DNA of 54,525 nucleotides, the filler included, from Sluysia triapertura (Eukaryota): NCBI GenBank assembly GCA_046118255.1. It is 4 parts of 4 records of this genome, joined end to end, with 100 filler letters (N's around TTAATTAATTAA, not from the genome) between each part and the next. Parts side by side here need not be neighbours in the genome. Positions count along the whole stretch, not along the records: positions 1 to 12,019 come from JBJNIA010147054.1; positions 12,120 to 27,894 come from JBJNIA010219581.1; positions 27,995 to 43,135 come from JBJNIA010237996.1; positions 43,236 to 54,525 come from JBJNIA010186303.1. The stretch is one strand, 5' to 3'. The translations under genes and the position numbers were made by a program. Positions 10,476 to 49,233 of the stretch are shown here, piece after piece; position 1 is the first letter of the stretch, and every line of letters begins with the position of its first letter. Below the pieces are notes generated by a model that did no database searches, had not been told where the DNA came from, and worked only from the letters and a program-made list of their open reading frames with translations.

Positions 10476-10482
10476 GGCTGGT

Positions 10483-10700
10483 TGTGGTGTCACTCCTATT
10501 TTAATAATTTCGTCACCCTCAAAATTTATAAAATTTCATAATCAACCCATTCACTTTACTGTTACTTTCCCACATTAACATAAACTATAAATCATGCCCT
10601 CCAAACTCCAAACCTCACACCAAAATCATTTGTATCAACATCACAGTTCGTTCCCCTCTGATTATCATCCACATCATCATCACTCTCAACGTTATCTTTA
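10483..10700 (+). mobile_element. Degenerate TGTGGTG-type LTR-like repeat
   Basis: TGTGGTGTCACTCCTA followed by C/A-skewed sequence, like the copies at 20690, 39307 and 44870. Confidence 0.35.
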
Positions 10701-10848
10701 CTATTTTGTAATTTTTATTAATTTTATAATTTTTATTACTTTAATTATTTTTATTATTTTTATTGTTTTTATATACTTTCTTCAATATATATAATTTATT
10801 TACCTAATCTATTTTTAGTTAGTCAAAATAAAAATAAACAAGATAAAA

Positions 10849-11950
10849 ATGATTAATATATGTAGCAAAGGCGACGAATTGTTAGAAACTCGTTTCAATG
10901 AGGTTACAAATCCTTTAAATCCTATTTTTAATGAACATGTAGTAATTGCGTTTAATGAAGTTGAAGATAAGATAAATCATTTAGAATTTACTGTAGTTTA
11001 TCTTGAAGATAAGTTTACTCATAATTTGCCAGCGAATTTAACCATTGGTGATTTAAAGAAATTGTTAGAACCAAAACTAAATGCCTCTAATTTACAAAAT
11101 TTAAATTATTTCAAACCTGAGTTATTGAATCCAATGACCGATACTACATGTGAAGGTGAAGTCGAAGGTAAGATAAATCATTTAGAATTTAGATTCATTT
11201 AGAAAAGTTTACTCAAAATTTTCCAGCAGATTTAACCAATGGTGTTTTAAAGAAGTTATTAGAATCAAAATTAAATAGAATCAAAAATTAATCTTACGCG
11301 AGATACTAGCTGATAATGTTACTCTAGGTGAATTAAAGTTAAATAAATCCTGTAAAACAATGGTTGTTGGCTTATCTCAAAATGAAACTGAAAGTTTATT
11401 TAAAATGGAAGCTGGTGTTGTAGCTGTTTTGCCTACTCATTTGGATAAAATATTTAAAAATATTACGATAGTTGAGACATGTCATATGAATACTATTGTA
11501 AATAAAGTGTTTACTTTTGATGTAAGTATGATATATCATAAGAAGGCAATTATGACAAAAACCGTCAATTATCGAGTTCTGCTAATGCATATTAATCTCC
11601 GCGATGAGCAACTTTATGTTCTTATTGAAGTTCTGGCCAGTAAGACTTTTATTAATTCAAATTTTTATTTTAGGTCAACGATTGATGGTATACTTTTTAT
11701 GTATTATTATTGTTTTTATGAAAAATTGATTTTTGTTCGCGAAATAGATAAACTGCGTGCTTATTTTGTTTTGTACTCCTTAATTAAAAAGATCATTCAC
11801 GGCCTTAAGCCTATGTTGTATTTTGAATTAGTAATATTCGTTATGGACCTTAAGTCCAAATTTTGTAAATTAATTTTAATTAATTTGATCAATATATTTT
11901 TTAAATTACTTTCATCTTATGTTGAAAATGTTGGGACTGCCAAACTGTAA
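10849..11950 (+). pseudogene. Frameshifted gene with a partly duplicated UBFD1-like ubiquitin domain fused to an unrelated C-terminal region
   Basis: LEFTVVYLEDKFTHNLPANLTIGDLKKLLE, and NQKLILREILADNVTLGELKLNKSCKTMVVGLS (frame from 11279 into ORF 11360), resemble the UBFD1 Ubl (QKVMYKGL..EDKTLREIKVTSGAKIMVVGS). Frameshifts near 11195 and 11277. Confidence 0.6.
10957..11276 (+). repeat. ~120-bp direct repeat (10957-11082 / 11158-11276) duplicating the Ubl N-half
   Basis: gaagttgaagataagataaatcatttagaattt...ttagaaccaaaactaaat versus gaagtcgaaggtaagataaatcatttagaattt...ttagaatcaaaattaaat. Confidence 0.9.
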
Positions 11951-12019
11951 GATCAGAAGATGAGCGAGAAACATTTAGATTATTAGATGAAAGAAACAAC
12001 TGATACAAAGTGATGGATT

Positions 12020-12119
12020 NNNNNNNNNNNNNNNNNNNNNNNNNNNNNNNNNNNNNNNNNNNNTTAATTAATTAANNNNNNNNNNNNNNNNNNNNNNNNN
12101 NNNNNNNNNNNNNNNNNNN
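12020..12119. other. Artificial contig linker N44-TTAATTAATTAA-N44
   Basis: Exactly 100 bp, stops in all six frames, identical at three sites. Confidence 0.97.
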
Positions 12120-12230
12120 CAATAGTAAGAAGTGTGATTGCTTTAGAATTTATGTTTTATTGAAATTTAAATTATGGTTATTGGATATTATGTTTTAAAA
12201 AGTTTTAGGTTTTAAGTGTTGGCCACTACA
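12120..12230 (-). mobile_element. Terminus of TGTGGTGG-type repeat, cut by contig start
   Basis: Reverse complement reads TGTAGTGGCCAACACTTAAAACCTAAAA. Confidence 0.5.
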
Positions 12231-13764: not shown

Positions 13765-13900
13765 GCTGTGAGTTCACCAACGTACTGGACTTACCAGTGA
13801 GGACCAGCCGTTGGATTTTGACGTAAAAGAAAGATGCTTTAATAAGTCTCAAAAAACTTTAATCGACTCCTTAACTGAAATTATGGAGATAAATTAATAT
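13765..13900 (+). pseudogene. Relic paralogous to the C-terminal part of the CYHR1-like pseudogene near 36.8 kb
   Basis: gtgagttcaccaa..tggacttaccagtgaggaccagccgttggattttg matches the reverse complement of 36773-36820. Peptides are GLTSEDQPLDF versus GLTG*GQPLDF. Confidence 0.6.
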
Positions 13901-14739: not shown

Positions 14740-14742
<3 letters not shown>

Positions 14743-14800
<58 letters not shown>

Positions 14801-14806
14801 GTAATA
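14743..14806. repeat. (AAT)n microsatellite
   Basis: About 20 AAT units. Confidence 0.97.
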
Positions 14807-18866: not shown

Positions 18867-18949
18867 AAAAACAAATAATAATAAAAAATATAAACTCAAG
18901 TTTCAGCTTTATTCCACGTAAGTCACATAAAATTATTACTATTTTTATT

Positions 18950-19475: not shown

Positions 19476-20689
19476 TAAATGTATTTGACATATAATTCTT
19501 ATATCCTGTTTTATTTAAATTAGTTACAAAATAATTAACACATTCGCATCGGGAAACGAGAATTTCTTATAAATTCTGAGATAACGGGATTACATATTAA
19601 CAGTGCTACATTATTAAATGAGTTAGTACACAATTCGGTTATATATATTTTTATATCACTAAAAGACCATGATTTATAATAAATATTTAGTAAAAGTAGT
19701 CCGATACGAATGTGTCAAAATCACTTATGTAAAACAAAAATGATTCAAAACAATAATCATACTTGATCTAAATCATTCGGTGGTTTGATAACTTTAGTTG
19801 TAATTTTAAATTTATGTTTCAAAGAATTGGACTTATAAGTTAATTTCTCATATATAGGAATCACTAGATTAAATAAATACAAATATTTTATCAAATATAA
19901 TCAATGTTTAGTCATACTTTGTATAATTTATGCAAAATTTAAATAGATATTGTATAACAAAAATAACGATTTAATTGGATTAATCATTATAATATAAAAT
20001 AAAGCACAATTTATTACTATTTCATAAATCAATTAAATTTATGATACCACGACCTCAGGGAAAAAACTGCCACAACAGTCCAGAAGTTTTATTATTTAAA
20101 TATGATAATAATTGTCATAAGTTTTATGAGATGTATTTGTACAAACAATTATCATAAATTGATAAGGAATACTCATCACATATACGTGACGCTGATAGCG
20201 AAGGGGTTAATTAAATTTGCATGGAAAACGATATCTCTAAACGTTCGAAAATATATGATAATAAAAACGTTTATGATATTAATATTCAGTAAATTTATTG
20301 TTTGAAGCCACAATTTTCCACAATTTGGGCTTATTATTCTACCTTTCTGTTTTTTTTAAATGTAACTCAAGTATTTCTAATTTGATAATGGAAACATTAA
20401 AAATAATTATCATATAATAAATAGTAAGTGATAATGTCTATACAAAAAACAAAAAAACGCGCAGTAATATGTGAACATTTATAATCTGATTTAATCGATA
20501 ATATTATCATAAGATAATTTCTAAAGTAAACACTCACTAACCAATTTTGATAATGTTCATAATTGGAAACATTTTAAAGATTTTAACTGTGGTGGTTCAA
20601 CCTTCTTCAGTTAAAATTTTGCATTGATAAACCAACAAAACATTGCACAACAAAAATGACAGTACGGTTACCTAAACATATAAACAATT

Positions 20690-20970
20690 TGTGGTGGCCA
20701 ACCTAATATCCTAAAATTTTAATTTAACACTACACATAAAAATCATTCTTCATAATATTTAATAATTTATTTTTTTAGGATTCTTTAAAATTGTCAATAC
20801 TTTCAAACATTTTAAATTCAAAAGTTCATAACATTAAAATCTTAGTCAACATCGAAAATCATCAAACGTACAAATTTTACTCAACCCAAAACATTTCAAG
20901 TTCACAATCCTTCAATACTCAATCAGCGAAAAACATTAAATTCACATTTTAAAACCATTTTAAACATTGC
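20690..20970 (+). mobile_element. TGTGGTGG-type LTR-like repeat
   Basis: Starts TGTGGTGGCCAACCTA. Aligns at both ends with the reverse complement of 23345-23921 (caaaacatttcaa..aatcct.caata.tcaatc..aaaacattaaatt). A second terminus TGTGGTGGTTCAACCT lies at 20588. Confidence 0.7.
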
Positions 20971-21312
20971 AATCAAAATGGAATGTCTTTAACATCTTTA
21001 GTGATTCTCTTATCAGCTCTTTCCACATTTCACGTAGGATTTTAAATTCGTATATTACTATTGGGATCATTAAAAATGTAGTTACTTTCTTAAAATTTAA
21101 TTTTTTGTTAGAAAATTGGAAATTAAATTTATATTTCGTTATGATCATCGCGAGATATAAGATTTTAAGTTTATTGAAAAGAAATAACAATTTATACAAA
21201 ACGAAAAATTTATTCATAATACTAGAACTAAAAATGTTAGCGTTAATAAACTTTAACTTCTGCATATGTCTTCCTGTGGACCATGTTTCACTATCTAAAT
21301 AGAAAAATATAA

Positions 21313-22639
21313 CTAAAATATATTCAATGAATTATAAGGAATGATTAGTTCATTGTTGTTGAGAAAATTTACGCCTGATCGTTGAATTGTAGGACTGCTG
21401 GCAGTAGTCTTGGTAGCTTTAGTACTGATATCTGCGAATAAATAAGCTATCCTACTGTAGTGTGCCGATCGGACTGCAGGGTCGACATGAAACTCTTCTA
21501 ATTCATAAATTGCAAGGAGGTGTTTGCATTTTAAGCCAAATCGTTTGCATTTTCCATCCTGATTTGTTGCATATGGGCAAAGAGCCGTTTTGTAATACAT
21601 ATTAAAGCTTGACGAACTAAAGTCAATTTTACGATGATAGAAATCAACATTTTCGATTCATTAAATTTTAAATTTGTAAAAACACCTTCTACATCACATG
21701 TATTTCTTGATTCTGGAAAGTTCATTATTTGTGATTTTCTAAAATTCTTTTTATCTTTACTGCATGATTCGGATGGTAGAATTCGTAAAGCTTTATCAAT
21801 GTTTAGGGTTAATTGACAACTTATCATTTTATCTGCCTCATCCATTGCTAAATGTTGAATTTAATAAAAAATTTCTCTAATTAGATTCTTATGCTGCAGC
21901 ATCATCAGAATTTGACTAGGAGTTGCTGCAACTGTGTGTCAATATGAAAATTTCTAAGTTCAGTAATTCGAACAGTCATCTCTATATCTTCAGTTAAATG
22001 TATTATATTTAGATTTAATCCTTCACTTTTATTCAATAATTCTTGCTTTATCAAATTAATTGTGGTATCAAAGTCTTTATGTTAATTAGAGGTTGATTGA
22101 ACATAATAAGTAACAGTTTTTTTACAACAGGTTTCAAATAGACCAATGATATCTTTGCGTTGAATCACAACTGAAGTAGCATGTTGTTGGAGTTGATCCG
22201 ATTTTAACCATTTTAAATTAGCCATATTGTTCATAGGCAATAATTCCGAAGTGTTACGGATTTTTTGGAAACGTGATGGATAGGAAGGCCATAATATATT
22301 ATTTCGCATTTTTTGACATTCGTAAAGAACTTTGATATAATTAGGCAATATGCGAGCTTTAAACAAAACGTTGTACGGATTATTGGATATATTTAGACAC
22401 ATTTTATCTAATGATGAATTATATGATATAAGTAACATTTTAACGATAATAAAAGAAACATTAACTTTATTTGCCAATTCATCGATAATTTTATTTAACA
22501 TTATTTCCGCATTGTTAATTTGTAGTTCTTCATAAAGTAAATATTTCGTATCTATTTTAGGTTCATCAGCTTTATAATCACCTTCAAAATAATAATCTTC
22601 TCCTGTTTTATAATATTCTGTGTCAGTATCATCATACAT
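21313..22639 (-). pseudogene. Chimeric intronless gene: Ariadne-2 (ARIH2) N-terminal UBA-like region + DEAD-box helicase domain 1 + Unkempt-type CCCH finger
   Basis: Residues 1-100 are ARIH2-like (EDYY...LNKIIDELANKVNVSFIIVKMLL...LFKARILPN). Q-motif/Walker A QLQQHATSVVIQRKDIIGLFETCCKKT. Motif Ib AATPSQIL (21912-21923). Motif II IQHLAMDEADKMI. YYKTALCPYATNQDGKCKRFGLKC. Two TAA stops and two frameshifts. Confidence 0.75.
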
Positions 22640-22764
22640 TTACTAATTTTTTAATATTGAATAATCGATGAAAGCGTTGCTAAATCTTTTAAAGCGTGCT
22701 TTTTCGTTGTTACTAATAATACAAACTATTAATTGAAAATATTTTTTGTAATTGTATTTGTGTA

Positions 22765-22950
22765 TTGTCACTGTCTGACCAATCAAACAGGTATTGAGGA
22801 AGTACTAAAAATTTTAGTTGATGAGCCAGTAAAAGCGTTAGTATACAATAAAACGACATCAAAGTACGATTAACTGTCATCAGTCGACAGTTAACGAAAC
22901 GGCGCACTGAAAATGATTTTAAATGCCTGTCGACTGATGGCAGATTAAAT
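22765..22950 (-). promoter_or_regulatory. Cis-module with two CTGTC-N7-GACAG palindromes and a CCAAT box upstream of the chimeric gene
   Basis: TTAACTGTC-ATCAGTC-GACAGTTAA at 22870-22894. Inverted copy (16/17) at 22927-22943. GACCAATCA near 22777. Confidence 0.55.
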
Positions 22951-23344
22951 AGTTAGAATACAAGAATAATTAGGAGGACACCATTATTTGGTAATTGCTA
23001 ATAAATAATGTTAATTACAATAAAATAATAATGATAATGAATAAAATAAATTAATGATAATACAAGGAAAACAAAATATGAAAGCATAAATCTCTTTAAT
23101 ATCTTATAAACATGATCTTTCTTGTAAATAAAATATTTGACATATTGTAATTTTTCTAATAAAAGTTATTTCTTGTTATTCTGTTTGTTATGTGAATGCT
23201 TGGCTTCATTGCTTATACTTTTGACATATAAGTTGTGCTTCTTATTCCTTAGGGAAATATTATATAAAAAAAGAAACTGTTAAGATAATGTTTGGAAGAA
23301 ACGATCGATGCAAGAGCGTTTAGGGAATGTTATTTTGATAAAAA

Positions 23345-23921
23345 CATCAAAAAGGTTTAAAAGTGTTAATTTAATGTTTTCAGTGATAATAGAGATTGAA
23401 TATTGTAGGATTATAAATTTGAAATGTTTTGAATTAGTTTGAAGGTGTAATTTGTAATTCTGATGTTATGAAATAATGAATAAAATGTTTTAAATGACTT
23501 TTCAATATATTGATGGTTTGAGATGTAAATTGTGGTTTGAATGGTGAGGGTTTGTGAATTGAGCTGTTTTGAATAAACTTTAAATTGTAGCTTAATGGTT
23601 TTAAATGTAATTATGGTTCTGATGTTATGAATTATAGGTTAAAATGTTTTAAGTAAATTTTAATATGCGTTAATGGTCTGGACGTAGATGAAATTTTAAT
23701 GTTATAAAGTATGAAATGGAATTGTTTTGAGAAATTGTGATAAAGTTTTATTGAAAATAAAGGGGACAAAATGTGAAAAGATTTAAATGTAAAAGTATTT
23801 AAAATATAAAATTTTATGTTTGAAGTGTTTGATGATATTAAGCGTGTAAAAAAATGGTAAAGAGTGATTTTGTTATGTCAAAAAAATAAAATTTGTTAAA
23901 AGTTATAGGTTAGCCACCACA
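23345..23921 (-). mobile_element. TGTGGTGG-type LTR-like repeat (long copy)
   Basis: Ends TAGGTTAGCCACCACA on the plus strand, strong G/T skew, homologous to 20690-20970 and 39307-39700. Confidence 0.7.
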
Positions 23922-24349
23922 TTTCATATATTTGTAATCATCAATAAAGTCTCGTCCAAAGAAAATAAGAATTAGAACAAATATTTCAAAAATCATTTAA
24001 AGAAAGAAATGAAGTATTTCATAAACAAGGAAGAAAAGAACAAAAGATTTATACATTTTTATATAACTATTTCTTTTATTCATTTGTTAATTATTATTAC
24101 CATTTTTATTCGTTATTATTAAAAGATCATGTAAGGTAAAAAAATTAGAAGAGACTTAAAGAAATTTATGTATTTTATTATTTTAATTTGTCATTATTTC
24201 TATTTTTATTACTTATTATTATTTTTATTTTATATATTATTATTATCGCCATTTTTTTATTATTTTTCATTTTATTATTACTATTAGTATTATTATTATC
24301 TTTATATTATTTAAAATATTAGCACAAGTTATATTAGCAACTATATCAC

Positions 24350-24535
24350 CTGTCAGTACTTGACAGTTTTAAATTAAATAAAGTTTATATCATCGTATTA
24401 ACTGTCAACTACTGACAGTCTCATTACCAAAAATCAGAATTACGACTTATACAAAGTATTATCAGTGGACATCCAATCACGACTCTGTTAATAGTGCCAG
24501 AAAGAGCTTGATTAATAAAAATTTAGAAAAGATAT
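24350..24535 (+). promoter_or_regulatory. Cis-module with two CTGTCA-N5-TGACAG palindromes and GGACATCCAATCAC
   Basis: CTGTCAGTACTTGACAG 24350-24366, CTGTCAACTACTGACAG 24402-24418, GGACATCCAATCAC 24467-24480. Confidence 0.55.
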
Positions 24536-24736
24536 TTTTAGTCAAACGTAACTTACCAGAGATCAATATAGAGTGAAAAACTTGTCGGTCTTTAAATAGA
24601 AATTTCAGATTGTATAAACAGCAATTTTAATTATTTAGTTAATCAGAATATTATGCATAGTTAATATTTGTTAAAATAAAGACGAAATTTAAATGTACGT
24701 TTACTTTTATATTTTACTATCATTTGGTATCAAAAA

Positions 24737-25574
24737 ATGTTCAAAAAATCAAGAAAATGGAACAAACGAAAACGAAAAGAATTTTATAATTCTGATGAAG
24801 AATGTGAAGAAACACCAAAAGAATTTAAAATGTTTAATAAAGTTAGATCTAGATACATTTACGTTCACGAATCAACTTCGACAATAAAAATCTTATTACA
24901 AAATCGATTAGTTACTGAAGCAAAAGAAATTATTAGAAAAGTAGATGCAGTTTATCATAGAAAGTTAATAATTGAATTTTGTGTTATAGTCAGTCAAGAA
25001 TGTTTTCAATTGATATATGTTACACCAGAAACTTCATATAAAATTCCAAATAATTGGTACAAAGAATTAAGGCAACATCATTCATATATGTTTCATAATG
25101 TTACAGTCAATAGATTTGTTCCTGAATATGTTCTACCTATTAAAAACAAAATGGCTACAACCTAATTCTTCTCAAGATAAAATTTCATCTGTCAATGGAA
25201 AAATGTTATTTCATTCATATATAATCAAAATTGTGAACACGTTAACTTCAAGACAATATTTAATGATTATACGTATAGTCAGATTGTTTCAAAGATAAAA
25301 TCCAACGTTGATAATGAAGTACGTTTTTATCGAGACTAATAAAATCGACATATTTGAATTTATAATTAATTGTGTTTCCAAAAGACTTCATTTTATTTTG
25401 TCACCTGTTATGTTTAAAGAAAATTTATCCGCAAAATGCATTCTATCTTCAAAGGACATGCTTAATAACATTGAAACCCAATACCGACATAATGTGACTA
25501 CAATAGGTATTATGATAATTCTCTTACTGTCAATTCAAGATCATCAATTATTTCAATTACTTTTATTTTTATAA
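24737..25574 (+). pseudogene. Degraded gene with basic NLS-like start and possible BTB/POZ domain
   Basis: 142-aa ORF plus downstream fragments. KKSRKWNKRKRK, then RYIYVH...EAKEIIRKVD...LIIEFC, resembles BTB (FYVHK...EI.I.DVD...LLIEFCY). Confidence 0.45.
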
Positions 25575-26998
25575 CGAATAATCTAAAGTAAGACTAAAAA
25601 CATCTAAACCAAACCTAAACATTTAAAGATTGAAAAATTAAAATTGATTTTGTTCAATATTAAGGTTTACCCGACTAAATCATATACCTTAATCTAAAAG
25701 AATAAAACTAATTATGCAGTCTTAATTTTATCACAGCATTCCCTATTCAAACGTTATATTATAAACGTTTTCTTTAAGTTAATTAATCTATTTTTAGAAT
25801 ATATCATATCATACTACAAATGTTCTAAAATTATTTAGAACTTAGTAAATTATTCAGGAAGTTCTAGATTTTTCTACCTTCACCACTCTTATTGTCACTA
25901 ATTATTAGCGTACTAAATTTGTCTTCCTTATCAATAAGAATAAATTTACTTCATAAGTATTTTAAATATTTGATATTTTATAAGGTTGTCTAATGATCTT
26001 AAACATTTACTAAAGTTCTAGATAATCTTAAATGTAAAGTAAATATTACAAATAACTTGAAACTATATGACAACACACTGTAGATTTTCGTTTGCTTATT
26101 TTTACAAAAGGTATTAAAATAACACGCATTAGTGAAAACAATGATTTCAAAATATCAATAAGAGTTTATATGTACGCTAGTCGTACATTTAATTGTTTGG
26201 ATCTTTAGAAGGATTATTTTTAAAGTGACATGATGTAAAGTAGTTATATCACAACTAACATATAAACGAAAAACGCAATGTCCAGATACAAAGGAGAGTT
26301 TTAAGTTTCTATTGTTTAAGTTCTACCAGAACACCAAGACTATATTTATTAAGTAAAATCTTACCTGTTTGTGTTAAGTTTTAAAAGTATATATTTGAAT
26401 GTAGATTGTAGCGATGACGATGCTTATTTTAAAGAGCTATAAATTTATGTAATAGATTATCATTTTGTTAGATTAAATTATAGGAGTTTATAAGTTTATA
26501 AACTTTATAATTTGGCTTCGACTTAGTTCTTTTTACCTATATTATTTTCTAACACTTGTATCAACTTCTGGAGGTTATTGTTCATTCGTCTCTGGTGTAA
26601 GAGATGGAAGTGCAATTTTGTTGATTAACGTTAAAATTCAAGCTCTTCTCCTTAAAATCAAATAATATAAACTAAACTCACTAGAAGTTTATTTATCAAA
26701 TGTAAGTAGCAAATACAAAACCTACAAAAAATATTTTGGATAATATTCACAATATAAAAGGTACCACAAGTAATTATATTTTGGGTGCTTATAAATTTCT
26801 TAAAATTAAATTTATATTGAACACTACTTTTAAAGGTTACTCTGATGAAATTTTCAGTTGAATAGTATAATTGTAAATTGTATTTTAAATTGTAAAATGT
26901 CAATTATTCAATTACCTTGAGTTGGATATAATAAATATCTTGAACTCGAAGAGTAGTTTTGATATCTTCAATGAGTAGCTTCTTCAACAAATATTCTC

Positions 26999-27088
26999 CA
27001 AATAATAATTGCAAATGGGACCAAATAACTTTTTCAAATAATAATTGCAAATTGAACCAAATATCTTCAAATAATAATTGCAAATTGA
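26999..27088. repeat. Three-copy minisatellite, core CAAATAATAATTGCAAAT, periods 36 and 33 bp
   Basis: Cores at 26999, 27035 and 27068. Confidence 0.9.
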
Positions 27089-27894
27089 ATGACACCCATC
27101 TATTTATACTTGATTCTTTCCATAATAATGATATTTCCAATTTTTGTAATAAAGTAATATATAGTAAAATTACTTTTTGATACTGTTTTATTTACACTAT
27201 AGTTTGGTATTATTTTATAATATATGTTATTATTTTTTCCTGTTAATTTTAATTACTACTATTTCATTCACTTATTGTTTATTATTATGTGATTATTTTT
27301 TGACTTAATTCTTAATTTAATATTTTTCTGTATTATAATTTTTGCAATAATTTTATTGTCTTTAATGTGGTTTTTTTGTTGTAATTAAATTTTAGATATT
27401 TTGCAAAGAGATTGTATTATTAATGAACAATCTTTACAATTTGTAAACTAATAATTTGAAGCCAGTGCCAATTATATTGGTAGAAGGCGAGAGAATTTAT
27501 CTACCTAATACGAAATCATTCAATATGCAAAATTTATAAGGCGGTATTTTGAAAGCTACTGCATGACTCTGTCAAAGATAACAACAATGATCATGCTAAA
27601 AGAAATAATCTTCGGGATCCACTAGAATGCACTTAACAAGAACTGGTTATGTCGTACTTTTGCCGGTCTATTCTACAGTATGAGTCCTGAAGAAGACACA
27701 TGTTACTTATAATTGGGTTCTAAATGTTTTCTCAAACTATTGTCAAAGTTAAATTGTCATATTTTTATCGTGTTATTTTATTATTTTGTAAATATTATTC
27801 CTATTATAATTAAAACTTAAAATTATTTATTAAATTCAAATTAAAGAAAATTTAAAAATAAAATATAAAATTTAGAAAATTAAAATATCATAAA

Positions 27895-32806: not shown

Positions 32807-32825
32807 TGGTGTCAGAAGTGGGATT
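32807..32825 (+). mobile_element. LTR-retrotransposon primer-binding site complementary to tRNA-Leu 3' end (candidate LTR ~32615-32803 upstream)
   Basis: TGGTGTCAGAAGTGGGATT is the reverse complement of AATCCCACTTCTGACACCA, including the post-transcriptional CCA. It is preceded by ...CCA and a TGTAAG start at 32615. Confidence 0.75.
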
Positions 32826-32996
32826 TAAACACGAATATTTTTCATAACATTTAATAAAATTTGGACTTCTTCCTATTAGTAATCTTGGGTACGTTATTTT
32901 AAAGTCTTCTGTATCATATTATTTATAAATACAATTCACTTTTAAAAATACATCTTCACTAAATTTGTTAAAATCTAAATTTACTCCTTTTTCACA

Positions 32997-33325
32997 CTTA
33001 TATCTATTAATATTACCATGAGCTGTGTAAGTTCTACGTCTGAACTTTGAATCTCTGTGAACACGTATATGTTCAGTGATTATTTGATCAGCTTCTAAAC
33101 CTTTAAACTCAACATTCGCTTTTACATTTCTCAATATCTGTAATAAATTTTCTGCAGTTTTTTAGCCATCTTCGAGAACACGCGAAAACCTTAGCTCGTA
33201 CTTTACGGCCAAGGCCACCAATAAATCATCTAAATGACTATTTCTTTTTTAGCAATAACATTTTCGAAATATTTTTGAAATCCTTCAGCTGCATGTTTAG
33301 AATCGTTTTTGCTATCTTGACCACA
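32997..33325 (-). pseudogene. RPL17: 60S ribosomal protein L17 (uL22) pseudogene
   Basis: QKYFENVIAKKEIV, FR*FIGGLGR, AENLLQILRNVKANVEFKGLEADQIITEHIRVHRDSKFRRRTYTAHGNINRY match RPL17. Frameshifts, a stop, both ends missing and no introns in the aligned part. Confidence 0.88.
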
Positions 33326-34445
33326 CTTCACTTTCATACTTTTAAAATCTTCTTTTTTGTTAATACTTACCTTTGTACATTAAAAAAATATTATCGTGAA
33401 CTAAACAAACTAATTTATTCAAACAAATTGACTAATTATAAATCCATTTTAATCAAAATATTTTAAATGTTTATTAATTATCCTTATGCATTGCTATGAT
33501 CTTAAAAATGATCACCGTTTATCTTCACAATGCTATTTTAGATTTTCTCTAATCTCCAAACCTCTTATGTTATTGGATATACTTATATATGTCACATCTT
33601 GTCCTGCTATCAAAAACTTGTTTACAATATTCTATAAAACTTCGATATTGATTTAATACAACTAAATGGTATGGTAAAACTTTCAGCAAAGGCTCTTTTT
33701 TGTCAAATATGTCCATTTTTACGATAAAGTTGTCAAATGAAAATACCAATTTATCAATCTTAAAATTAATATGATTCATGATGTTCTGAGTTTTCCGATA
33801 TTTTAACATAATTCTTTAGTTTCTTTTGAAAGAGAAAAACACTTTTGAATAAGTTTACATTAATTTTTAGTTTTCAAATTTCATAATTGGAAGATTTACA
33901 CTGAATTTCATAATTTTACCTCTCATACGATTTTGTATAATAATTATTTTACTTAATTTTGATTTTGACTCATGCCATTAACTGCTATACCTTCTGTGGA
34001 GTGGGCTTTTTCTCTTTTAATTTTAAAAAATTATTAAAAATATTAAACTTTGTTTTTTGTGTTTTTAAATTTTTATTAGAAACGTTAAAAACTCTAATTA
34101 ATGAAAAACAATTTAAATAGAATTTGTAAACAATTAATAAAGTAGGCTTACGGCCTTTTGTAAACAAGGTTGAATTTTATTTTGAGAATAAAAATTTAAA
34201 TATATAAAAATATAAATAACACCAATAAATAAATAACGTGATAAGTTATCATGGTTACCCATTTTATCTGCATGATCATCAGTAGTACCTGCATTTGAAT
34301 TTGCTGAAACTAATAGTGTCTATTCAATGTATTAATTGACTTCAATTTATCTTCCCCAGTTTTTGCTAATATTATTAAATGTTTAACTTCATATTTTGTA
34401 AGATTCAGTGCTTTACAAATATATTGTAGAATATATCTATTAGAC

Positions 34446-38250: not shown

Positions 38251-38378
38251 NNNNNNNNNNNNNNNNNNNNNNNNNNNNNNNNNNNNNNNNNNNNNNNNNN
38301 NNNNNNNNNNNNNNNNNNNNNNNNNNNNNNNNNNNNNNNNNNNNNNNNNNNNNNNNNNNNNNNNNNNNNNNNNNNNNN
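38251..38378. other. Scaffold gap (128 N)
   Basis: Plain N run without the linker 12-mer. Confidence 0.97.
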
Positions 38379-38515
38379 ATTCCATTAATAATTTTTATTT
38401 TAAAGTTCATAATTTCCATAAATTTTATTCTTATTTTTTTATTAATTTAATTTCTAAATTTTTATTAACAATTCAGTTTTCATAATTAAATTAATTTTTA
38501 TTTTTAATTCCATTT

Positions 38516-39300
38516 TTATAAATTTAATTTTAGACCCATATAATTTTTATTATTATTGCTTTCATTATCTCCCATTAATTCTCTTAATAGTGAACGTGGG
38601 GTTCTATCTAAATCAACACCATTATCATCATTTATGAGTTCATCTAATTTTCTTAAATCATCTGAAGGCTTAGTGTATGCTATTATTACTGCAGAAGTCA
38701 TTGATTCTTCCTCAGGGTTTCCATTCATTGATGGATAACCTTAATCATTGGGTAATAATTTTCTATCATAAAAATATAAATCAACATAACTTATAATGGA
38801 GTCATTTCACTTAAGTAATTCTATAATGTCTTTTACATTTGAAGTTACTGGTAGTTCCATGTAATATTCGAAGAATTATTAATAATTATACTTATTTTCA
38901 TTAAATCTTTATGATTATTTTCTCCTTCCTTTTGTCCTATTTTCCTTAGTAATTCTTCCTATCTAGTCTTATATAAACTATCTTCCTTACTTACTTTCTA
39001 ATATTAATTTAATGTCTTATCCATTTTGCATAATTAACTCTAAATTCAATAACTCATTTAAAGTTTCATTCAATTTTTTAGCATTTGTGATATCATTTGC
39101 CATATCTAATAAAAATTCCTCAACTTCAAGTTTTTGTTTCTGGGTATTTATTTTTTAGTTAGCGGATATTATTATTGATTCCACCTCTTCTATGGCACTG
39201 TAATACGCACCTTCTTCATCTATTACCATTTCTTCTGCCTGTAATTCTTCATCAACTATTTATTTATTATTATTAATATCTGTTTCGACTTATTAATCAT
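38516..39300 (-). pseudogene. Degraded acidic/coiled-coil ORF, possibly retroelement gag
   Basis: Purine-rich minus strand with Glu/Lys-rich peptides (LLRKIGQKEGE) and many stops. Directly abuts the repeat terminus at 39307. Confidence 0.3.
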
Positions 39301-39306
39301 CACTTA

Positions 39307-39700
39307 TGTGGTGACCAACCTATTATTTTTAGTAAATTTCATTAAAAGTTTTTCTTTTGAACATTACAAAACCACATTCACTTTCAAAATATACAATATA
39401 CATCTTAAAACTCATTAAAAACATTTTATACATAGTTCCATTTCAATATAATCAAAATCGCATGTTTCAATATCACACAATTACCCTTTTACAATGTACC
39501 AAAATCTACACTATAATTTATCTTCTTTACATTCACCAAACTACTCTCTTTTCAATGCAATTTTAAGTCACAACCTACTAACATCTAAACATTACTTTCA
39601 TACAAAACATCAATGTAAACTTAAAATCCATTTAAAAAACTTATATTATTTTTAAATATTCAAATCACAAGTCCACAATCCTTTAATTTCCATAACTTCA
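39307..39700 (+). mobile_element. TGTGGTGG-type LTR-like repeat
   Basis: TGTGGTGACCAACCTA start, C/A skew, and distal block caagtccacaatccttt shared with caagttcacaatccttc at ~20900. Confidence 0.65.
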
Positions 39701-40270
39701 AATATGTTTAGAAATAATAAAGGAGATGAAGAAAGTTTATGTTTAGAAAATCGAATAAATTTATGTTTTTTATATTAAAAATAATAATAATAATAATAAT
39801 AACATTATTATTATTATCATGTTAATTTCAATTTAATTTTATAGTTCAATTAAATAACTTTGTAACTATCACGACCAGTGGTGACTTCATTAATTTAAAA
39901 CTATGATTTATTGTCACCACAGATAGTGGCTTGTCTGTCAATCATGTCTCTTTTAAGGCTATTACTGGTTGTCCAACCAGAGTGTACCTGAACAACCAAT
40001 CAAGATAATCGCTCATTTAATACTGTGATACTATGTATCAATAGTTAATCGTAATTTGATTCATGCTAAAAAGTAGACAATAATACTGTGCTAATACTAA
40101 TAAAGCTAATATTAGTTCGACAGCCAATCCAGACACAGTACAAAAATACAGTTCATTTTTAAAGAAGTTATTATTTTAAATATAAACACTTATGAAGTAA
40201 GGCGAACATTTTACTGATCTATATAATTTATATTATGATTCAAATATTATAAAGACATTTTAATATAAAA

Positions 40271-41700
40271 TTGTGTCAAAATTACGTATCAAAGCCATGT
40301 TATGGTAATCTTACAAATATACGTTTATTGAATGATTTATTTATAAAGAACGAAAGTGTATGTTGTTTTATCAAACGTGATAGAGATATTACAAGGGACA
40401 TAAATATAAGTGATAAATTGTTAGTAAATTCTAAATATTGTGGTACATGTTCATTTACTTGCCTAGTAAATGGAAATCCTGAATGTGGAATAAATCTTGA
40501 AGACAGTTGCGATGAACCTAATGAAGACGTTTTTCGTTATGACAACAATTTTATATTTTTAATTGAAAAAATTTTAAAAAAAGATGTGCATAATTATTTA
40601 AGTTTACTAAGAAATTAAATATAAATGAATTAAGTAATTACAGTATTCTAGAAACTAGTAAATACTTTAAATAACCTAATTTAAAAAAACGGAGTGTAAT
40701 TAATATATATATTTTTTAAAGGATCAATAATTCAAGTAACATGTAAATGTATAGGAGTGTGAATGAACGAAGTTCTGTTGCAGTTGAATGGTATCACCAC
40801 AAAAGTCTAATAGTGTTACAAATAGCATATTTAATTCAAGTGAACTAGTTAATATAGATAAAGATCAGTATTGTTTATTTACGAAGATAAACTTGATATA
40901 ATTAAGATATGCAATAACAAAGACTATGAAGATTTTGAAAACCTAAATAAGAATGATATGGAATGTTACATGACTTATGATAAATGCATGAAAGGATTTC
41001 ATAAAAACTTAATGCATGTAGATGATTTATTTATAATTAAATATTCGGTCTGTTGTACTAATTTATCAAAAGATATTCACACAAATTGTAAAATAAAAAC
41101 AGGTCAAATTTTGTTGATAAGTAATAAACTGTGTGGAATATCTTGTGGATTTGGATTTCAGTTTTACTTGAAAACAGAACAGAGTACAATAATGAAAATG
41201 AACTATATTTTTTAATGGTGGAGTTTTAGCTCTAAAAGAAGTTTGTGATGCAAATAAACCTCTACGTATAAATATGCCTAGTTATGCATAGAATATGAAG
41301 AAAAACGTAAAAAAAGATTACAATCATCTTTCGTAAGCCAACATATTATTTCTTTTAAATGTCAACGTTTTTACCGTATATCCAAGAATATAACGTATGT
41401 TCCATCATTTCCTGGCAATCCAATGTTTCAAAAATATTTCAGTAATGCATCAATTCCAAGTCAGGGTATTACAACGACACTTCGCCCATTTAGCAGTTAC
41501 CAAAATGGTATTTAAACGAAATTTGTAATCAACTGCCCTTACGCTCACACAGTTAGTCAAGTGGTGAATCGTAATCTCCAGTGTACTTTTTACATGAATC
41601 GTCTGTTTAGAATGGAGAATTTGCAAAAATGCATAGGAATTCAAATTTCAGAAAAATACAACAACATTCGTTATTTCTATAATGATAATGTAATTTTTCT
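40271..41700 (+). pseudogene. Degraded orphan gene with two copies of a Cys-containing domain
   Basis: LLNDLFIKNESVCC...LLVNSKYCG versus HVDDLFIIKYSVCC...LLISNKLCG. Further ORF fragments run to ~41700. Confidence 0.55.
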
Positions 41701-43088
41701 TTATTTTTACTCTAACGATAATTTAACTTTCATTTTTCTTTTAGGTAGAGACACGTGGCTTAATAACAATACAGAAGACATTATGAACCCCTTAACTAAC
41801 AAAAAATTTAAATTTTGTGGTTTTAATAAAATTTTCGCTGTTTACGTATTTTCTTTAATTTTTGATAAACTGTTAAATTTAAAATTCGTTTCTAAGTGGA
41901 TAAATTTCAAATTGAGAATAAAAATTTCAAACAATAAAGTAAAAGAATATTATAAAAACCTGATATTCAACATTAAATTTAAATACCCTAATCTTACAAC
42001 AACTTAATTCGTTATTCGTTTCGGAGTCATTTGAATGATCTTTTTCATCATTTATTTCTTAATTTGTTTCTTCTTCTTCTATTGAACTCGATTCAGTATT
42101 TAATTCTTCTTCTATTTTATCATTACTTTCTTTGGATTCTGAATCTATTTCTGTATCGATTCTTCTATTTGGTTCAATTTTCTTCGCCTTATCATCCAAT
42201 TATCAATTATTTCTTGAATTCTTTTCTTTTATCTTCGTTTGTAATTACTTCTTTATTTGTTTGATTCTTTCTTCCATATGTTTGTTTAATATTTCTCGAA
42301 TTCTGACTTGAATTGGTTGGACTATTAATCTATTTTTTCCTTTTCTCATTGTTCCATTCTTTGCTCATCTTTTTGGAATTCTATAGTGCATGTAACTCAT
42401 ATAGATTTCCTCTTCTTGCTTATTTTTGAATCTATTTTTATCGCAATCTAATCCAGTAATTTAAAATTCTCTAAGCATCGCATTCTTTTCTTCATTGGTA
42501 ATTAACTTAAGATATTTTTCATCTTCTTCATCGCTACTAATTTCTCTTCTTGCTTCTCTTCTATTATTTCTTTTCTTTTCATATTGATATTCGTCTTCGT
42601 CTTCATATTCGTTTTTATAATTTCTATAATTTTTTGACTTCTATAGTTACAATTTACCTGTCCCTTATTACTCTTATTATTGTCATCATTAAACCTTACT
42701 TTCCTATTAGGACTTTGGTATCTCTGTTGTTGATGGCCCCTTACTATAGTAAAGTCTTGAGTAAACACATTTGGCCTTAGTTTCCTACAATTTATTTTTT
42801 CCAAATTTTTTGCTTATATATTTAATTTTTGTACTATTTTATTTTATAAATTTTACAAATTAATTTTTTACTTCAAAATTTTATTCTTAATCACAAAAAA
42901 TATTTACATTAAAACCAAATAATCAACAACAATAACAATACTAAAATTAAAAATCAATAATAACTATCTATTAATTGTCTATTATGTGCATAAATAATTT
43001 AATATGTATGTGTTACAAATAATCATATATAATATATAATCATATATTTTATTATTATTACTATTATTATTAATCCTATTCATTAAAG

Positions 43089-43135
43089 CAGTGGTGTCAA
43101 AGTGGCAGCCTGCGGGCCGCTTGCGGCCCGTGTAT
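43089..43135 (+). mobile_element. hAT (Charlie/Buster-type) transposon terminus, cut by contig end
   Basis: CAGTGGTGTCAAA...GCCTGCGGGCCGCTTGCGGCCCG is the typical terminus plus GC-rich subterminal palindrome. It is preceded by the 8-mer CATTAAAG (nnnTAnnn). Confidence 0.8.

Positions 43136-43235: not shown

Positions 43236-43305
<70 letters not shown>
43236..43305. repeat. (AAT)n microsatellite inside a probable intron
   Basis: About 23 units. Begins immediately after a minus-strand GT donor at 43306. Confidence 0.95.
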
Positions 43306-43306
<1 letters not shown>

Positions 43307-43555
43307 TTGAATGCCCAAATCCACGTGTTTTTCCTCTTTTGTACAATTTGTATCTTTTTCGTGTATTTTTCGACATTTGATACAATTTGTTTTATGGCAT
43401 ATTAAACATTCAAACGTTGTTGTTGTTAATTTCACATCCGAAGTAACATAGTAATTACAATTAACGCTTCGACAAATATATACAAATGGCAATATACTTT
43501 TTATGAATTTAAACGATCGATTCTCATATTTTTCATAATCTTTTTCAGATAAAAT
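43307..43555 (-). CDS. Exon encoding the IBR domain of an RBR E3 ligase (RBCK1/HOIL-1-like); upstream RING1 region (~43650-43910) appears degraded
   Basis: TTTTAG|ILSEKDYEKYENRSF...YICRSVNCNYY...FECLICHKTNCIKCRKIHEKDTNC...IQ|GT. It is a 249-nt phase 0-0 exon with a complete IBR ligand set. Confidence 0.75.
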
Positions 43556-44869: not shown

Positions 44870-45110
44870 TGTGGTGGTACAGCCTCTTAGATTACATGCA
44901 TTATACCTACTCTAATCAGAAACCACATAGACTTCATCACAAAAACCATACTAAAATAAAGTTCATCCGTAACCCTTACATTATTACACCTTTCATTATT
45001 AACAAAGCATAGACGCATAACAAAACCCCTAATACTTTAATATTTTGTCTATTAACATCCAAGTAACGTTTATCGTCATTTTATCATCACTTCAACATCA
45101 TTCTTTTAGT
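44870..45110 (+). mobile_element. TGTGGTGG-type LTR-like repeat (divergent)
   Basis: TGTGGTGGTACAGCCT followed by a C/A-skewed tract. Confidence 0.4.
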
Positions 45111-45516
45111 GTATTTTATTTGTGCACGATTTAAATGTTTATCGGTGAAACAAATTTTTATAGACGGATAATTTTATTGAATTTCATAATGATGGGTAAT
45201 TTTTCGTAGCTTCTGCTGAATTAACAGTCCCGTTAAGTCTTTAAATAAGAGGATTGCAATTGTTAGCTGAGGAAAAGCATAAATATGGGAAACAGTAAGA
45301 AAAAGAATTAATGATCCCTCGAAAAGCTGAACAAAATGTAATTAATAAGAATAAGAAAAGAAAAAGAAAATATAAAGAAATAAAGAAATTTACTTTTTTT
45401 GTTGAAAAATGCATTATAATATATATAATTTTTACAATTTTATATCGTATATCGTTTAACGAAATATTTTCCTTTTACGTTTAAACTATACACTTTTGTA
45501 TTTGGAATAATACTTT

Positions 45517-46612
45517 ATGAATAATATAACAGTTTTTATGAGCAATATTATGAACTGGTCTGCTATTAGAATGAAGAAATTTGAGGTGTCAGAAGAAGCT
45601 TTGCAGTGCATGTCAAGTTTCATGAAATACTGGAAGTCTTGTTCGTATGAAAAGAAATTTATTGGCGATATTAACATATTCTGTGAAAAACACAAAGATT
45701 TTGTACATATGAACTGCGATGGTGATATTCAAATTACTCTGAAAATATTTTTATTCTCTCGTGATGAAAGCGCAATTAAAAATGCATTTAAAAACATTTC
45801 AAAACAAACCCAAAATACAAAATTATCCAAGCTCCTGTGGTCTGGCATTATCTAGAAAATGAAGTACATGAAAATAAAATCTGGCGTCTAGGTGTAATAG
45901 ATGAGTTTACCACAATTTCGAGTTTTGTGTAATTATACAACTATAACTTCAAAAATAAATCAAGTTAATCATAAAATGCTAAGTACCATTCCAAACGATA
46001 TTAAAAAAGTCGCAAATGATCACGATATGGGACTGTTATCTGATTATAATGATACACCAAATAATGATCGAGATCGTAGTGCACATAGATTTGAACTCCT
46101 GAAGTGGATGCATGGATTATATCGAATCTGCATTACTAATATTACATTATTCTATTCTGATGAGCATGATGGACTCTTGCTACCATGCGGTTGTATTCGA
46201 AGCTATATTGTTAAAACGTGAAACCAGCCCAGCCAGTTGGTTCTTGGTCAGTGATGCAGAAACGATTCAGAGATTGCAAAGTTCGAGAATTGAGCATCAA
46301 ATTCAAATTGTACGGGTCCCTAAAGCCATTGTAGAACATTTTCATTATATTCAGTGTAACTTGATTTGTTCTGATTTGATAAAACATATCTTAAACGAAG
46401 TTTCAAGTGAAGATTGCTTGAAGTTTAGTCATGATGAATTACGATATGCTGGTTTATGTTTAAAGTCTTTAGTTGATGGAAAGGTAGTACCCGACATTTT
46501 GTGAAAGACTTTAAACTGTTGGATGTGTGTACGCGGCCTATCCGAAGGTTACAAACGAGAGACTCATTTTTTTTGTTTTATGAATTTTGCTCGCGTTTCA
46601 AAATTAGTTTAG
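45517..46612 (+). pseudogene. Fragmented intronless orphan gene
   Basis: Three consecutive ORFs (112, 106, 130 aa) in a visibly higher-GC island. Open reading continues after the TGA at 46502. No family recognised. Confidence 0.55.
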
Positions 46613-46925
46613 TTACATTATATTTGTGTTCTAATATGAATAACTTGTCTTATCTTTACTTTATTCGCCCTCACAGGTAGAGAAAAAATGTTTTCAAGTG
46701 CCTTAAGCACGAATTTGTTAATAAAAGTTATAAATATATAAATGCTAAATGCAATACAAACTATGATAATAAATTTAATGAATTATATCTATTGAATAAA
46801 GACATTTATTTCTCCATAAAATACTTACAATTTAAAAATAACACTTCTTTACCCATACAAATCCCTTTAAATAATAAATTCAGTAAATGACGAACTAAAG
46901 ATATAACACAACAATGTTATATTAA

Positions 46926-47170
46926 CCCTTTGACTACCAATGGGACGATGGATCCCACAGAAGTTATGTTCTACATCAGTGGGTTAAAAGTAGCTTTAAA
47001 CAGCCTAACAGACCGTCCCAATGGTTGTGTAATGCTTATTGAATGACGTGAAATCAGCTGGTGACCTTGGTCGGTTACATTTATCTAGTTATTATTATTT
47101 GTGTTGTCAGACTGCACCAATTAAGTTAATATTATAAAATGGGAGCAAAAAAGGTTTGGTAGTGAAAGGG
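46926..47170. mobile_element. Complete piggyBac-type MITE (245 bp)
   Basis: TIRs CCCTTTGACTACCAA / TTGGTAGTGAAAGGG (14/15), with a TTAA duplication at 46922-46925 and 47171-47174. Confidence 0.92.
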
Positions 47171-47334
47171 TTAAAACTGTTTAACTAATAACAAGTTAAA
47201 TGTTACTATAAAAGCTAACAGAATAAGAAGGATGAGACTATACCAATTATAATAAAAATTAACCAATTGAATTCTTTTGCTTTAATCAAAGATTGACGAT
47301 TAGAATAAGTAGTCTATTAACACCTTTAGTATTT

Positions 47335-47863
47335 AGACATCATGGCAATAATTTTCATCATATACCTTCTCAACACAGGATGGATATTCATCGCAGAATC
47401 TTTCACTACAATTTAGAGTAACTTCACTAAAAATCATATAAACGTCTGTAGTCACATGTTGCACGATAAATGTTGCGCTTGTAAAAGAATAAGCATATGT
47501 GCCTTAAAGTATCTGATAACTTTTGAATTCGTAAAATTTTGCAAAATTCTCAATTTTAAGTATCATATAAAATAGTGCACTGACCTTCGATTTTTCAAGG
47601 TCTAATGTTATTCTGCACATATGTAGTACTAAATATTTACAACTTTCATTTCGTTCTATAGTACAACTCATATTAGTAAAACATAGTCCTAACATTTTAA
47701 ACCAATATGTCAGATAACTTTTAAAATTGTTCCATTTCGGCATGTAGTTGAATTCAAGTTGGATACTGACGTATTCGTCATAATTATGTAAAATAAGACA
47801 TATAAACTGCTTAATTTTAACTTCATATTCAGACCAACATAAAATTATATTTTTATCCAACAA
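47335..47863 (-). pseudogene. Orphan coding relic
   Basis: 119-aa ORF whose frame stays open for ~55 more codons after one TAA. Confidence 0.35.
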
Positions 47864-48947
47864 ACCACAATATTGATTTTTTGTATTAGTTTTATTTGGT
47901 TATAAATTAATATTGTTTTTATTTATTTGTATCTTTTATAATTTCAGGATTTCTTTCAGAACAAAATTTTGGAGATTTACCAGGTTATAATTTAAATATT
48001 TGATTTAGCAAAATTAATTTGTAGTAAATTGGTTATCATTCTTCATGAATAAGATGTTTTCATCCATTATTTTACTCTCATCAGCATTTTGGGGAATACA
48101 GTTTATTTCCAAAATTTCTATATCCAGCGATATGCGGAAGCATCAAATCTAACAGATTTCCTTCCAAATCGTAAGCTTTTTATTTTAAGCTTTACGTACG
48201 ATAAGATTAAAATACACTTTACTCTCGATAAATTTACAAGTAGTTTAAATCTGATTCTAAAATTAAACTCAATATTAAAATTGTCTTAATATTTTAACAA
48301 AATCGTTTTATCACTCATCATTATACCTTAAAAATTATTAAACTATACATCAATTGTATTCCAATTCAATAAAGTCTATCTAATAATTTTAATATTTTAT
48401 TTCGATAGCTGTTATACTTCTTCGTAGCCTAATGTGAACGAATCCAGTGAAAATTTATGTTGAAATAATAAATTACAAAATTAATTAATTTATTTGGTTA
48501 TTAATTACCTTTATTATGCAAAATAATTATTAAGAATTTTAATAACCTCTTTAATTTCACGCTCTTGTAAAATACCGTTACAATTAAATGGACATCGAAC
48601 AACAAGATCAATAGTTTCAATTATATGATTTTCAAGACATTTTCTAAATAAGGAAATGTCGTATAATCAGTAATATCAATCTAAATTTAAATTATTGTTT
48701 CAAATTCGAACTTAATTTCAGCTTATCAAAACCTATTTGTAATAAATACATGCCGCTTCATTATTTACTATTATTTATTTTATTGTTAGATTTAAGAATA
48801 TTTTGTTATATTGTTACGAATTTTTGTTAAATTTCGTTAATTTAATGTTATGTATAATCGCTTTTATTTTACATGATTATTTGAATATTTTTGGAAAAGC
48901 ATTCTTAACAATATACAATAATTTAATATTAATTATTAATGCTGTAT

Positions 48948-49233
48948 TGTGGTGGTCCAACTTTATTCAGAAGATTAACGAAACAATACATATAATAAAC
49001 CAAATTTTAAATCAAATACCCAAAACTTCAAATAGTATAAAATCATATAACTTTTAACTAAACCTTAGAAAGATAATAAAAAAGCATGATAAGGAAGTTC
49101 CTATTTCATTTTTTTCACAAATATCTTTTTATAGATTATGACAATTATTTCCTTATCGAAACGGGTCAACAAATTCTTTAGACTTTTATACCTTCATAAA
49201 TCATTCATATTCAAATTGAATCAATAAATTACA
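48948..49233 (+). mobile_element. Candidate complete LTR (TGTGG...AATAAA-TTACA)
   Basis: TGTGGTGGTCCAACT start. AATAAATTACA ends at 49233, followed by C-TGG and a degraded Glu/Lys-rich reading frame. Confidence 0.4.

Follow-up and report, generated by a model that had tools for sequence, protein, structure and literature searches.

What is marked by the motif TGT[GA]GTG, which recurs ahead of C-rich stretches and intron-free reading frames in the genome of Sluysia triapertura? The question arises from a window of 54,525 nt (the whole stretch of DNA analysed, from assembly GCA_046118255.1), for which a preliminary description placed the motif at the start of a long terminal repeat (LTR)-like repeat of 250–580 bp and suggested that the genes behind it may be products of an element-driven capture system. 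The window consists of four contigs of ~24% GC; the linkers at 12020, 27895 and 43136 read N44-TTAATTAATTA-N44 and are artificial joins, so the contig order may be arbitrary, and an additional gap lies at 38251. The feature is real but its geometry was misread: what is present are cargo-laden, nested, multi-copy LTR-like units. The motif appears to be the 5′ end of dispersed multi-copy units of 2.7–2.9 kb that enclose broken host-gene fragments, which we take, with confidence a little above even, to be solo LTRs left by a large retrotransposon of Ty3/Gypsy type whose LTR captured and swapped pieces of host mRNA. The evidence consists of two delimited and colinear units, a terminus that adjoins many different flanks, cargo that recurs in many contigs and the nesting of one unit in another.

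One complete unit, E1, and its surroundings are made up as follows.

39307–42001, plus strand: unit E1, complete, 2695 bp, TGT...ACA; delimited by its ends and target site duplication (TSD), and colinear with unit E2
39302–39306, plus strand: left TSD, ACTTA, exact over 5 bp
42002–42006, plus strand: right TSD, ACTTA, exact over 5 bp
39830–40250, plus strand: promoter-like region of putative function, with CCAAT-type boxes at 39994 and 40122
40253–40618, plus strand: cargo, Cys-rich frame copy 1, a duplicate of copy 2, of no family
40862–41215, plus strand: cargo, copy 2 of the Cys-rich frame, its DNA a homologue of the E2 stretch that derives from a DEAD-box gene
41466–41943, plus strand: CCCH remnant and 3′ non-coding region common to E2 (297/523, z 10.9)
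38420–39301, minus strand: left flank, acidic coding relic without a family match
42007–42813, minus strand: right flank, acidic relic that shares the register of the left, by reading-frame composition

An end of this type together with a TSD is expected by chance at 0.004 per 60-bp window. The flanks contain 41% and 29% D+E in their common frame and 0–4% in the other frames; E1 interrupts an older acidic minus-strand coding relic. Within the unit, the two Cys-rich frames match each other at E 2e-5, and copy 2 shares 120/199 DNA identities with the DEAD stretch of E2 (z 6.5), although their protein likeness is not significant. The Cys-rich domain has no match in the Atlas and reaches TIMP at E 0.45 only, a value not improved by a two-copy profile; its predicted fold (pLDDT 31) is unusable. 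The CCCH remnant is recognized pairwise at E 0.003.

A second delimited unit, E2, lies inside a third, E3. This region is also covered by X1, a public run containing it (51% of words) whose contigs were aligned at 80% likeness. X1 contig cover is confined to 19800–27880 (10007 contigs), with E1 and the sites at 10483, 44870 and 48948 outside it, and the run is possibly the window's own source, lending no independent support.

21033–23921, minus strand: unit E2, 2889 bp, TGT...ACG (differing from ACA at one base), within E3; delimited by its ends, TSD and X1 flanks
21028–21032, minus strand: E2 3′ TSD, TGAAA on the element strand, exact over 5 bp
23922–23926, minus strand: E2 5′ TSD, TGAAA on the element strand, exact over 5 bp
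23300–23921, minus strand: E2 C-rich 5′ body with an internal sub-repeat of ~140–210 bp (23371–23500 against 23510–23659)
22770–22960, minus strand: E2 promoter-like region of putative function, two CTGTCA-n-TGACAG palindromes and a CCAAT-type box
22331–22639, minus strand: E2 cargo, fragment resembling the ARIH2 N terminus (73 aa, E 0.074)
21768–21941, minus strand: E2 cargo, broken DEAD-box helicase fragment, motifs Ib–II (Pfam DEAD E 0.0067; DDX47 E 0.0017)
21511–21645, minus strand: E2 cargo, Unkempt-type CCCH zinc finger fragment (zf-CCCH_UNK E 8.5e-6; Unkempt E 0.0077)
20690–21027, plus strand: E3 5′ part (terminus and body), interrupted by E2; assigned by the likeness of its body to that of E2
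23927–25500, plus strand: probable continuation of E3, with a purine tract, palindromes at 24350–24480 and calmodulin-like cargo
20588–20689, plus strand: extra terminus copy 102 bp ahead of E3, its body not aligned to the family

The chance of an E2-type end with TSD is higher, at 0.03 per 60-bp window; the 5-bp duplication is exact in 2/2 delimited units. The number of sub-repeats differs among copies of E2 (X1 joints 23658>23442, 23489>23619 and others). The frame at 22639 had been described as an ARIH2 chimera, a label that the match above supports weakly: it ranked below an unrelated tag-bearing chain, and the fragment had no matches in a large protein set or the Atlas. The calmodulin-like cargo of E3 starts at ATG 24737 (E 0.006). 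E3 is repeated in X1 to ~25470, a unique contig begins at 25510, and no TSD-bounded 3′ end was found for this unit; on its other side, a unique X1 contig stops at 20615, inside the extra terminus copy. The idea that 20690 and 23921 are the terminal inverted repeats (TIRs) of one pack element was rejected, this arrangement being without a TSD and E2 having ends of its own.

E1 and E2 were first linked by self-comparison, in which 41655–41943 (plus) matched 21388–21096 (minus), far from the motifs. They are colinear end to end at 57–60% identity, with 244/418 positions identical in the 5′ body (z 4.8), and 5 of 13 E1 tiles scoring z<1 against E2. Ahead of their cargo, E2 and E3 have CTGTCA-n-TGACAG palindromes and CCAAT-type boxes in promoter-like regions that resemble each other (z 6.7), a pattern seen more weakly in E1 (z 2.1–2.3 to its counterparts); AATAAA and TATA are too frequent to place a poly(A) signal or promoter. 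An intron-like GT..AG stretch near 41690–41745 is common to E1 and E2. The termini of both are of TG..CA type and form a short, imperfect inverted repeat, exact in E1 and with a mismatch at the last base in E2; the E1 5′ end reads TGTGG and its 3′ end, inverted, TGTTG. This inversion spans ~6 bases only, and no direct or inverted terminal repeat was found inside either unit (5′ versus 3′ ends, z 0.9–1.0).

That such units are dispersed is seen at 23921, where 69 X1 contigs leave the unit at exactly this base and run on into AT-rich DNA that differs among them (agreement 0.43). Summed X1 depth, which is not copy number, is 490–1680 in the E2 interior and 280–670 in the E3 cargo, and unique stretches are single contigs of depth 13–17 with 1–4 differences. 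Single variants of the CCCH, DEAD and ARIH2 pieces of E2 are carried by 23–44 contigs and of the E3 cargo by 20; there are dozens of dispersed cargo-bearing copies. The 5′ bodies reach 5000–8700, a depth inflated because sub-repeats vary in number. All five cargo spans are broken, with the longest open stretch covering 121–223 of 278–482 codons. Since the cargo is repeated, in dozens of contigs for E2 and E3, and broken in every span, the lineage-specific class of working genes previously envisaged finds no support, and the genes are likely to be jumping-gene cargo instead.

How far does the motif itself define a family? All eight sites at which it had been reported, across the four contigs, do carry it, and the window holds 14 TGT[GA]GTG sites against a mean of 5.7 and a maximum of 12 in 40 order-2 Markov simulations. 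Mismatches were counted against the spelling at 20690, the commonest, picked from the data after the fact. The sites at 20690, 23921 and 39307 lie within two mismatches of it, as does none in the 40 simulations; adding 12230 and 48948 at up to three mismatches gives five sites against a simulated mean of 0.2 and maximum of 2. At four mismatches 10483 is at chance level (simulated mean 2.6, maximum 6), and 20588 and 44870 depart by more than four or by an indel. The C-skewed bodies are also borne out, with C>G skew at the 96.6–100th percentile of the window for all eight; the six remaining motif sites fall at percentiles 20–97.

A single aligned family is a different matter: against local shuffles, z is 3.4 or more for just 3 of the 28 body pairs, namely 20690/23921 (z 10.9; 20690 against the E2 body, 140/212 identical), 10483/44870 (z 4.1) and 23921/39307 (z 3.4). 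The first ~15 bases are conserved and the bodies behind them diverged. The bodies at 10483 and 44870 do not align to those at 20690, 23921 and 39307 (z≤0.9). The sites thus fall into a clear family, a pair joined by a weak link and others of doubtful membership. Failure of the short copies to align had been named in advance as refuting the proposal, and it does so in part only: 10483 and 44870 align just to each other and 48948 to nothing. The association of an LTR-like mobile element with captured chimeric host fragments is, in turn, not a matter of chance at 23921, 39307 and 20690.

A same-strand coding start 0.3–1.3 kb downstream was recovered at 5 of 8 sites with open reading frames (ORFs) of at least 100 aa (background 0.17–0.21, P 0.005–0.012), but this is not robust to the cut-off: at 70 aa or more, 5–6 of 8 compare with a background of 0.38–0.47 (P 0.10–0.15). 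The ORF counted behind 20588 is an antisense frame of the E2 3′ end. Reading the motif as a primer binding site (PBS) or as integrase W-W codons was rejected, the frame not being conserved, and Rfam gave 0 matches. The sites outside the clear family are the following.

10483–12019, plus strand: second group, terminus-like site, C-rich body and broken C2-like cargo from 10849, leaving the contig; z 4.1 to 44870
44870–46504, plus strand: second group, with a terminus-like site and its body, then broken cargo of GCLM type at 45517–46050 and a further unassigned piece; 3′ end not found
48948–49280, plus strand: motif match with mild skew, aligning to no other copy (z≤1.5); doubtful member
12120–12230, minus strand: terminus truncated by the contig end after 111 bp; body z≤2.6

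Names given earlier to the genes behind these sites hold up poorly. No family match supports the "Ubl" chimera at 10849–11410, where the cargo is C2-like (Pfam E 0.0038), nor the "gag-like relic" at ~49300, and 48746–49362 has no Pfam match in three frames. The 45517 "orphan" is not one: over 196 aligned positions its product shares 27% identity with P0035, a protein of aldo-keto fold (E 7.5e-6 across the library, 2e-17 in pairwise comparison) that we take to be the glutamate-cysteine ligase modifier subunit (GCLM). P0034 and P0036 were discarded, being judged spurious repeat proteins. No CTGTCA palindrome or CCAAT-type promoter-like motif was found before 45517, and no 3′ ends for 10483, 44870 and 48948; a piggyBac-like miniature element seen by eye at ~46925–47175 (TTAA CCCTTT ... 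AAAGGG TTAA) might hold that of the 44870 unit. A fourth unit running from 12230 across the linker to ~8800 was also discarded, its 3′ region failing to align (z≤−0.4). Ahead of 10483, promoter-like motifs at 10290–10480 resemble those of E3 (z 5.4) and face a broken minus-strand ORF (9400–9964); together these may be a further unit, in which the 10483 copy then landed. A C-rich body like that of 10483 (z 4.2), without the TGTGG terminus, lies at 53780–54080 (plus).

What, then, are these units? TG..CA ends, 5-bp TSDs, conserved first bases, variable 5′ sub-repeats and the lack of TIRs are marks of an LTR inserted by a retroviral-type integrase, and variable sub-repeats are usual in U3; a unit bounded by TSDs but containing no second repeat would be a solo LTR. 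Host mRNA pieces, co-packaged with the element, would have been picked up by the LTR through template switching in reverse transcription. Once inside the LTR, where we infer that capture placed it, the cargo would be duplicated at either end of the element and multiply along with it, which would account for the DEAD-derived and CCCH backbone common to E1 and E2. The first module may have been swapped, being ARIH2-like in E2, a duplicate in E1 and calmodulin-like in E3. Full-length elements would have been integrated by integrase, at times within one another, each insertion producing a 5-bp TSD, and LTR–LTR recombination would then have removed the internal region, leaving single cargo-bearing LTRs to decay. 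The cargo, mostly pseudogenic, may be transcribed from the CCAAT/CTGTCA-palindrome region. Several of these features have precedents. Template switching to host mRNA is a known capture route (PMC5131818), TGT..ACA ends occur in flatworm LTRs (PMC12471100), and Taenia elements have 5-bp TSDs and first eight bases bound by integrase (PMC4558846). LTRs measure 1.9–6.5 kb in Ogre and, by subtraction, are also large in planarian Burro (PMC6431247).

That LTR elements occur in this genome is also suggested by a candidate PBS at 32807–32825 (plus), presumably of tRNA-Leu type, behind a C-rich LTR-like stretch. Beyond it, at ~32960–33330 (minus), lies a fragment of ribosomal protein L17/L22, intron-free and frameshifted (Pfam E 9.6e-10), making the locus a candidate classic LTR-mediated retrocopy, for which no second LTR was found there. 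The LTR ahead of this PBS does not match the E1/E2 ends (z≤1.4), and this is one of several observations that weigh against the solo-LTR reading. A TSD-bounded unit is found at 2 of 8 sites only, and the E2 3′ end, which has a mismatch, is offset by ~18 nt from that of E1. No full-length element, pol gene, PBS or polypurine tract (PPT) adjoins any of the eight sites, and the 69 flanks at 23921 contain no PPT consensus. An RNA cycle should tend to lose introns, yet the GT..AG stretch is present in both E1 and E2. Nor is an RNA origin of the cargo established, because at the intron density of the MAU2 gene described below intron-free pieces of 500 nt are expected. Some cargo E-values are weak (ARIH2 0.074, calmodulin 0.006, C2 0.004). 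Finally, among the 6 loose-end rows listed of 2084, none falls at 21033 or 20690; its absence at 21033 is uninformative because that position adjoins deep E3 cover. No retroelement protein family was matched in the window.

Could the 2.8 kb unit itself be mobile? It might be a non-autonomous DNA "pack" element with integrase-like TGT..ACA ends and no long TIRs, moved by a DDE transposase related to Gypsy integrase (Ginger/Tdd-like), with host DNA filled in by gap repair. We regard this as rather unlikely, although the TGTNR 5′ end and 5-bp TSD are as in Tdd-4/5 (PMC2836005), each of the two delimited units has its own TSD and no PBS or PPT, and the mosaic cargo from several genes, the shared intron-like stretch and the missing PPT consensus in the 69 flanks would all fit. 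Ginger1 and Ginger2 are, however, defined by TIRs of 40–270 bp (PMC2836005) where these units have ~6 inverted bases; no transposase was found among 84 window ORFs scanned, the strong strand skew and the varying sub-repeats at the 5′ end are in keeping with U3, and solo LTRs would likewise be without PBS and PPT. That the unit moves on its own or keeps expressed chimeras is less probable still. So, to the same degree, is a 2.8 kb cassette with integrase-type ends but neither TIRs nor LTRs, mobile as a whole and equipped with a promoter and a slot for exchangeable cargo, that would shuffle ubiquitin, RNA and calcium-signalling modules, some copies still expressing chimeric proteins.

The model of the preliminary description, a short LTR of 250–580 bp that drives or retroposes downstream host-derived genes and so generates a lineage-specific gene class, whether by solo-LTR read-through of the ta-TRIM kind or through retrocopies flanked by two LTRs, now seems very improbable. 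The cargo of E1 and E2 lies inside TSD-bounded units of 2.7–2.9 kb and not downstream of a short LTR: the TSD closes 2.7–2.9 kb away, beyond the 3′ region common to both, and the paired LTRs around host fragments that had been proposed as a check are missing, there being no second LTR and no PBS or PPT beside the copies. Such a model would account for the same-strand ORFs behind 5 of 8 sites, a test sensitive to cut-off, and for the excess of 5′ body depth (5000–8700) over the interior (490–1680), which would mean that short 5′ pieces may exist alone but is inflated by sub-repeats. Read-through from solo LTRs into genes is known in Echinococcus (PMC4558846), and no 3′ end could be delimited for 10483 or 44870; the cargo, however, is multi-copy and broken. 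An equally improbable account supposes that a decayed chimeric locus was segmentally duplicated long ago and stands beside ordinary short solo LTRs, with TSDs and ends arising by chance in AT-rich DNA. Identities of 57–60% in 76% AT DNA, boundaries found after the fact and the six of eight sites that give no unit would be in keeping with it. Against this stand shuffle-controlled z scores of 4.8–10.9 in colinear order, 69 flanks at one base, the in-register relic on either side of E1 and a joint chance of ~1e-4 for both TSD ends (60-bp windows).

The rest of the window bears on the host and its repeats. A MAU2 gene (2229–3195, plus) matches flukes and tapeworms at 57–71% identity (33 matches in all, two further matches at 73–74%) and molluscs or arthropods at 44–48%; because MAU2 is closest to flukes and tapeworms, the host is likely a neodermatan, probably a parasitic flatworm, and a first guess at Intoshia was dropped on this ground. 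The gene has a single intron of 36–37 bp within ~840 nt. Its matches end at about residue 260–320 where homologues are ~700 aa long, and tblastn (E 0.01) found no remainder in the contig. Directly before it, 274–1857 (plus) is a 527-aa intron-free Cys/His-rich ORF with no Pfam match. Further observations are an IBR domain fragment at 43238–43555 (minus; Pfam E 1.4e-4), another RBR-ligase scrap, which runs into a TAA microsatellite; what we take from its pattern to be a hAT-like transposon end at ~43088–43135, at the contig end; repeat pairs of 59–72% identity (18583–18840/26773–26541, 12259–12628/25893–25545 and 13762–13856/36830–36738); and very deep X1 cover at 26550–27360.

How do these units compare with known systems of gene capture? 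Partial host fragments of several parents, re-amplified and dispersed within LTR-element sequence, recall LTR-mediated retroposition as in maize Bs1 (PMC5131818). There the cargo lies between two LTRs; here a single TSD-bounded unit with no repeat at its ends contains it, apparently inside the LTR, and the ends of the units (z 0.9–1.0) give no sign of flanking LTRs. The giant Gypsy Burro of planarians is likewise from a flatworm, with multi-kb LTRs, a size range shared by plant Ogre, and with host domains of ubiquitin and RNA pathways, but it exceeds 30 kb, encodes a gag-env-pol polyprotein and has its captured domains in the internal region, within that polyprotein or in accessory ORFs (PMC6431247), and no pol or env is seen here. 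Rice Retrosat2, with a 3.2 kb LTR and 429 solo copies, is similar in LTR length (over 3 kb), CCAAT/TATA near the 5′ end and an R region of ~2 kb; unlike the units here, the portion of its account at hand mentions no host-gene cargo in the LTR (PMC3485330). The ta-TRIM/lennie elements of taeniids are a neodermatan LTR family with conserved first bases, TSDs of 4–5 bp and many solo LTRs with promoter activity, yet are small and read into intact neighbours, whereas here broken pieces lie inside 2.7–2.9 kb (PMC4558846). The two LTRs, PBS and PPT of a small TRIM element are also not found in these units. Pack-TIRs and Pack-MULEs move mosaic host cargo as a unit with TSDs but require TIRs, absent here, and those of animals are mostly single-copy with ~224 bp of cargo against 1–1.5 kb in dozens of copies (PMC8277862). 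Ginger/Tdd elements share the TGTNR termini, and the 40–270 bp TIRs of Ginger1 and Ginger2-Tdd (PMC2836005) are not seen in these units. Literature searches, with limited coverage of subscription papers and Repbase, found no report of host-gene fragments inside an animal LTR.

In the described routes of gene capture by transposons, a pair of LTRs or of TIRs thus encloses the cargo. In these units it seems to lie inside a single terminal repeat, or in a unit without repeated ends, behind a promoter-like region, and module swapping among subfamilies seems to be part of the cargo system. Units of this kind will be called orphan or chimeric genes in annotation. If the solo-LTR reading is true, each solo LTR left by recombination would deposit a promoter together with chimeric gene scraps, a distinct route of exon shuffling.

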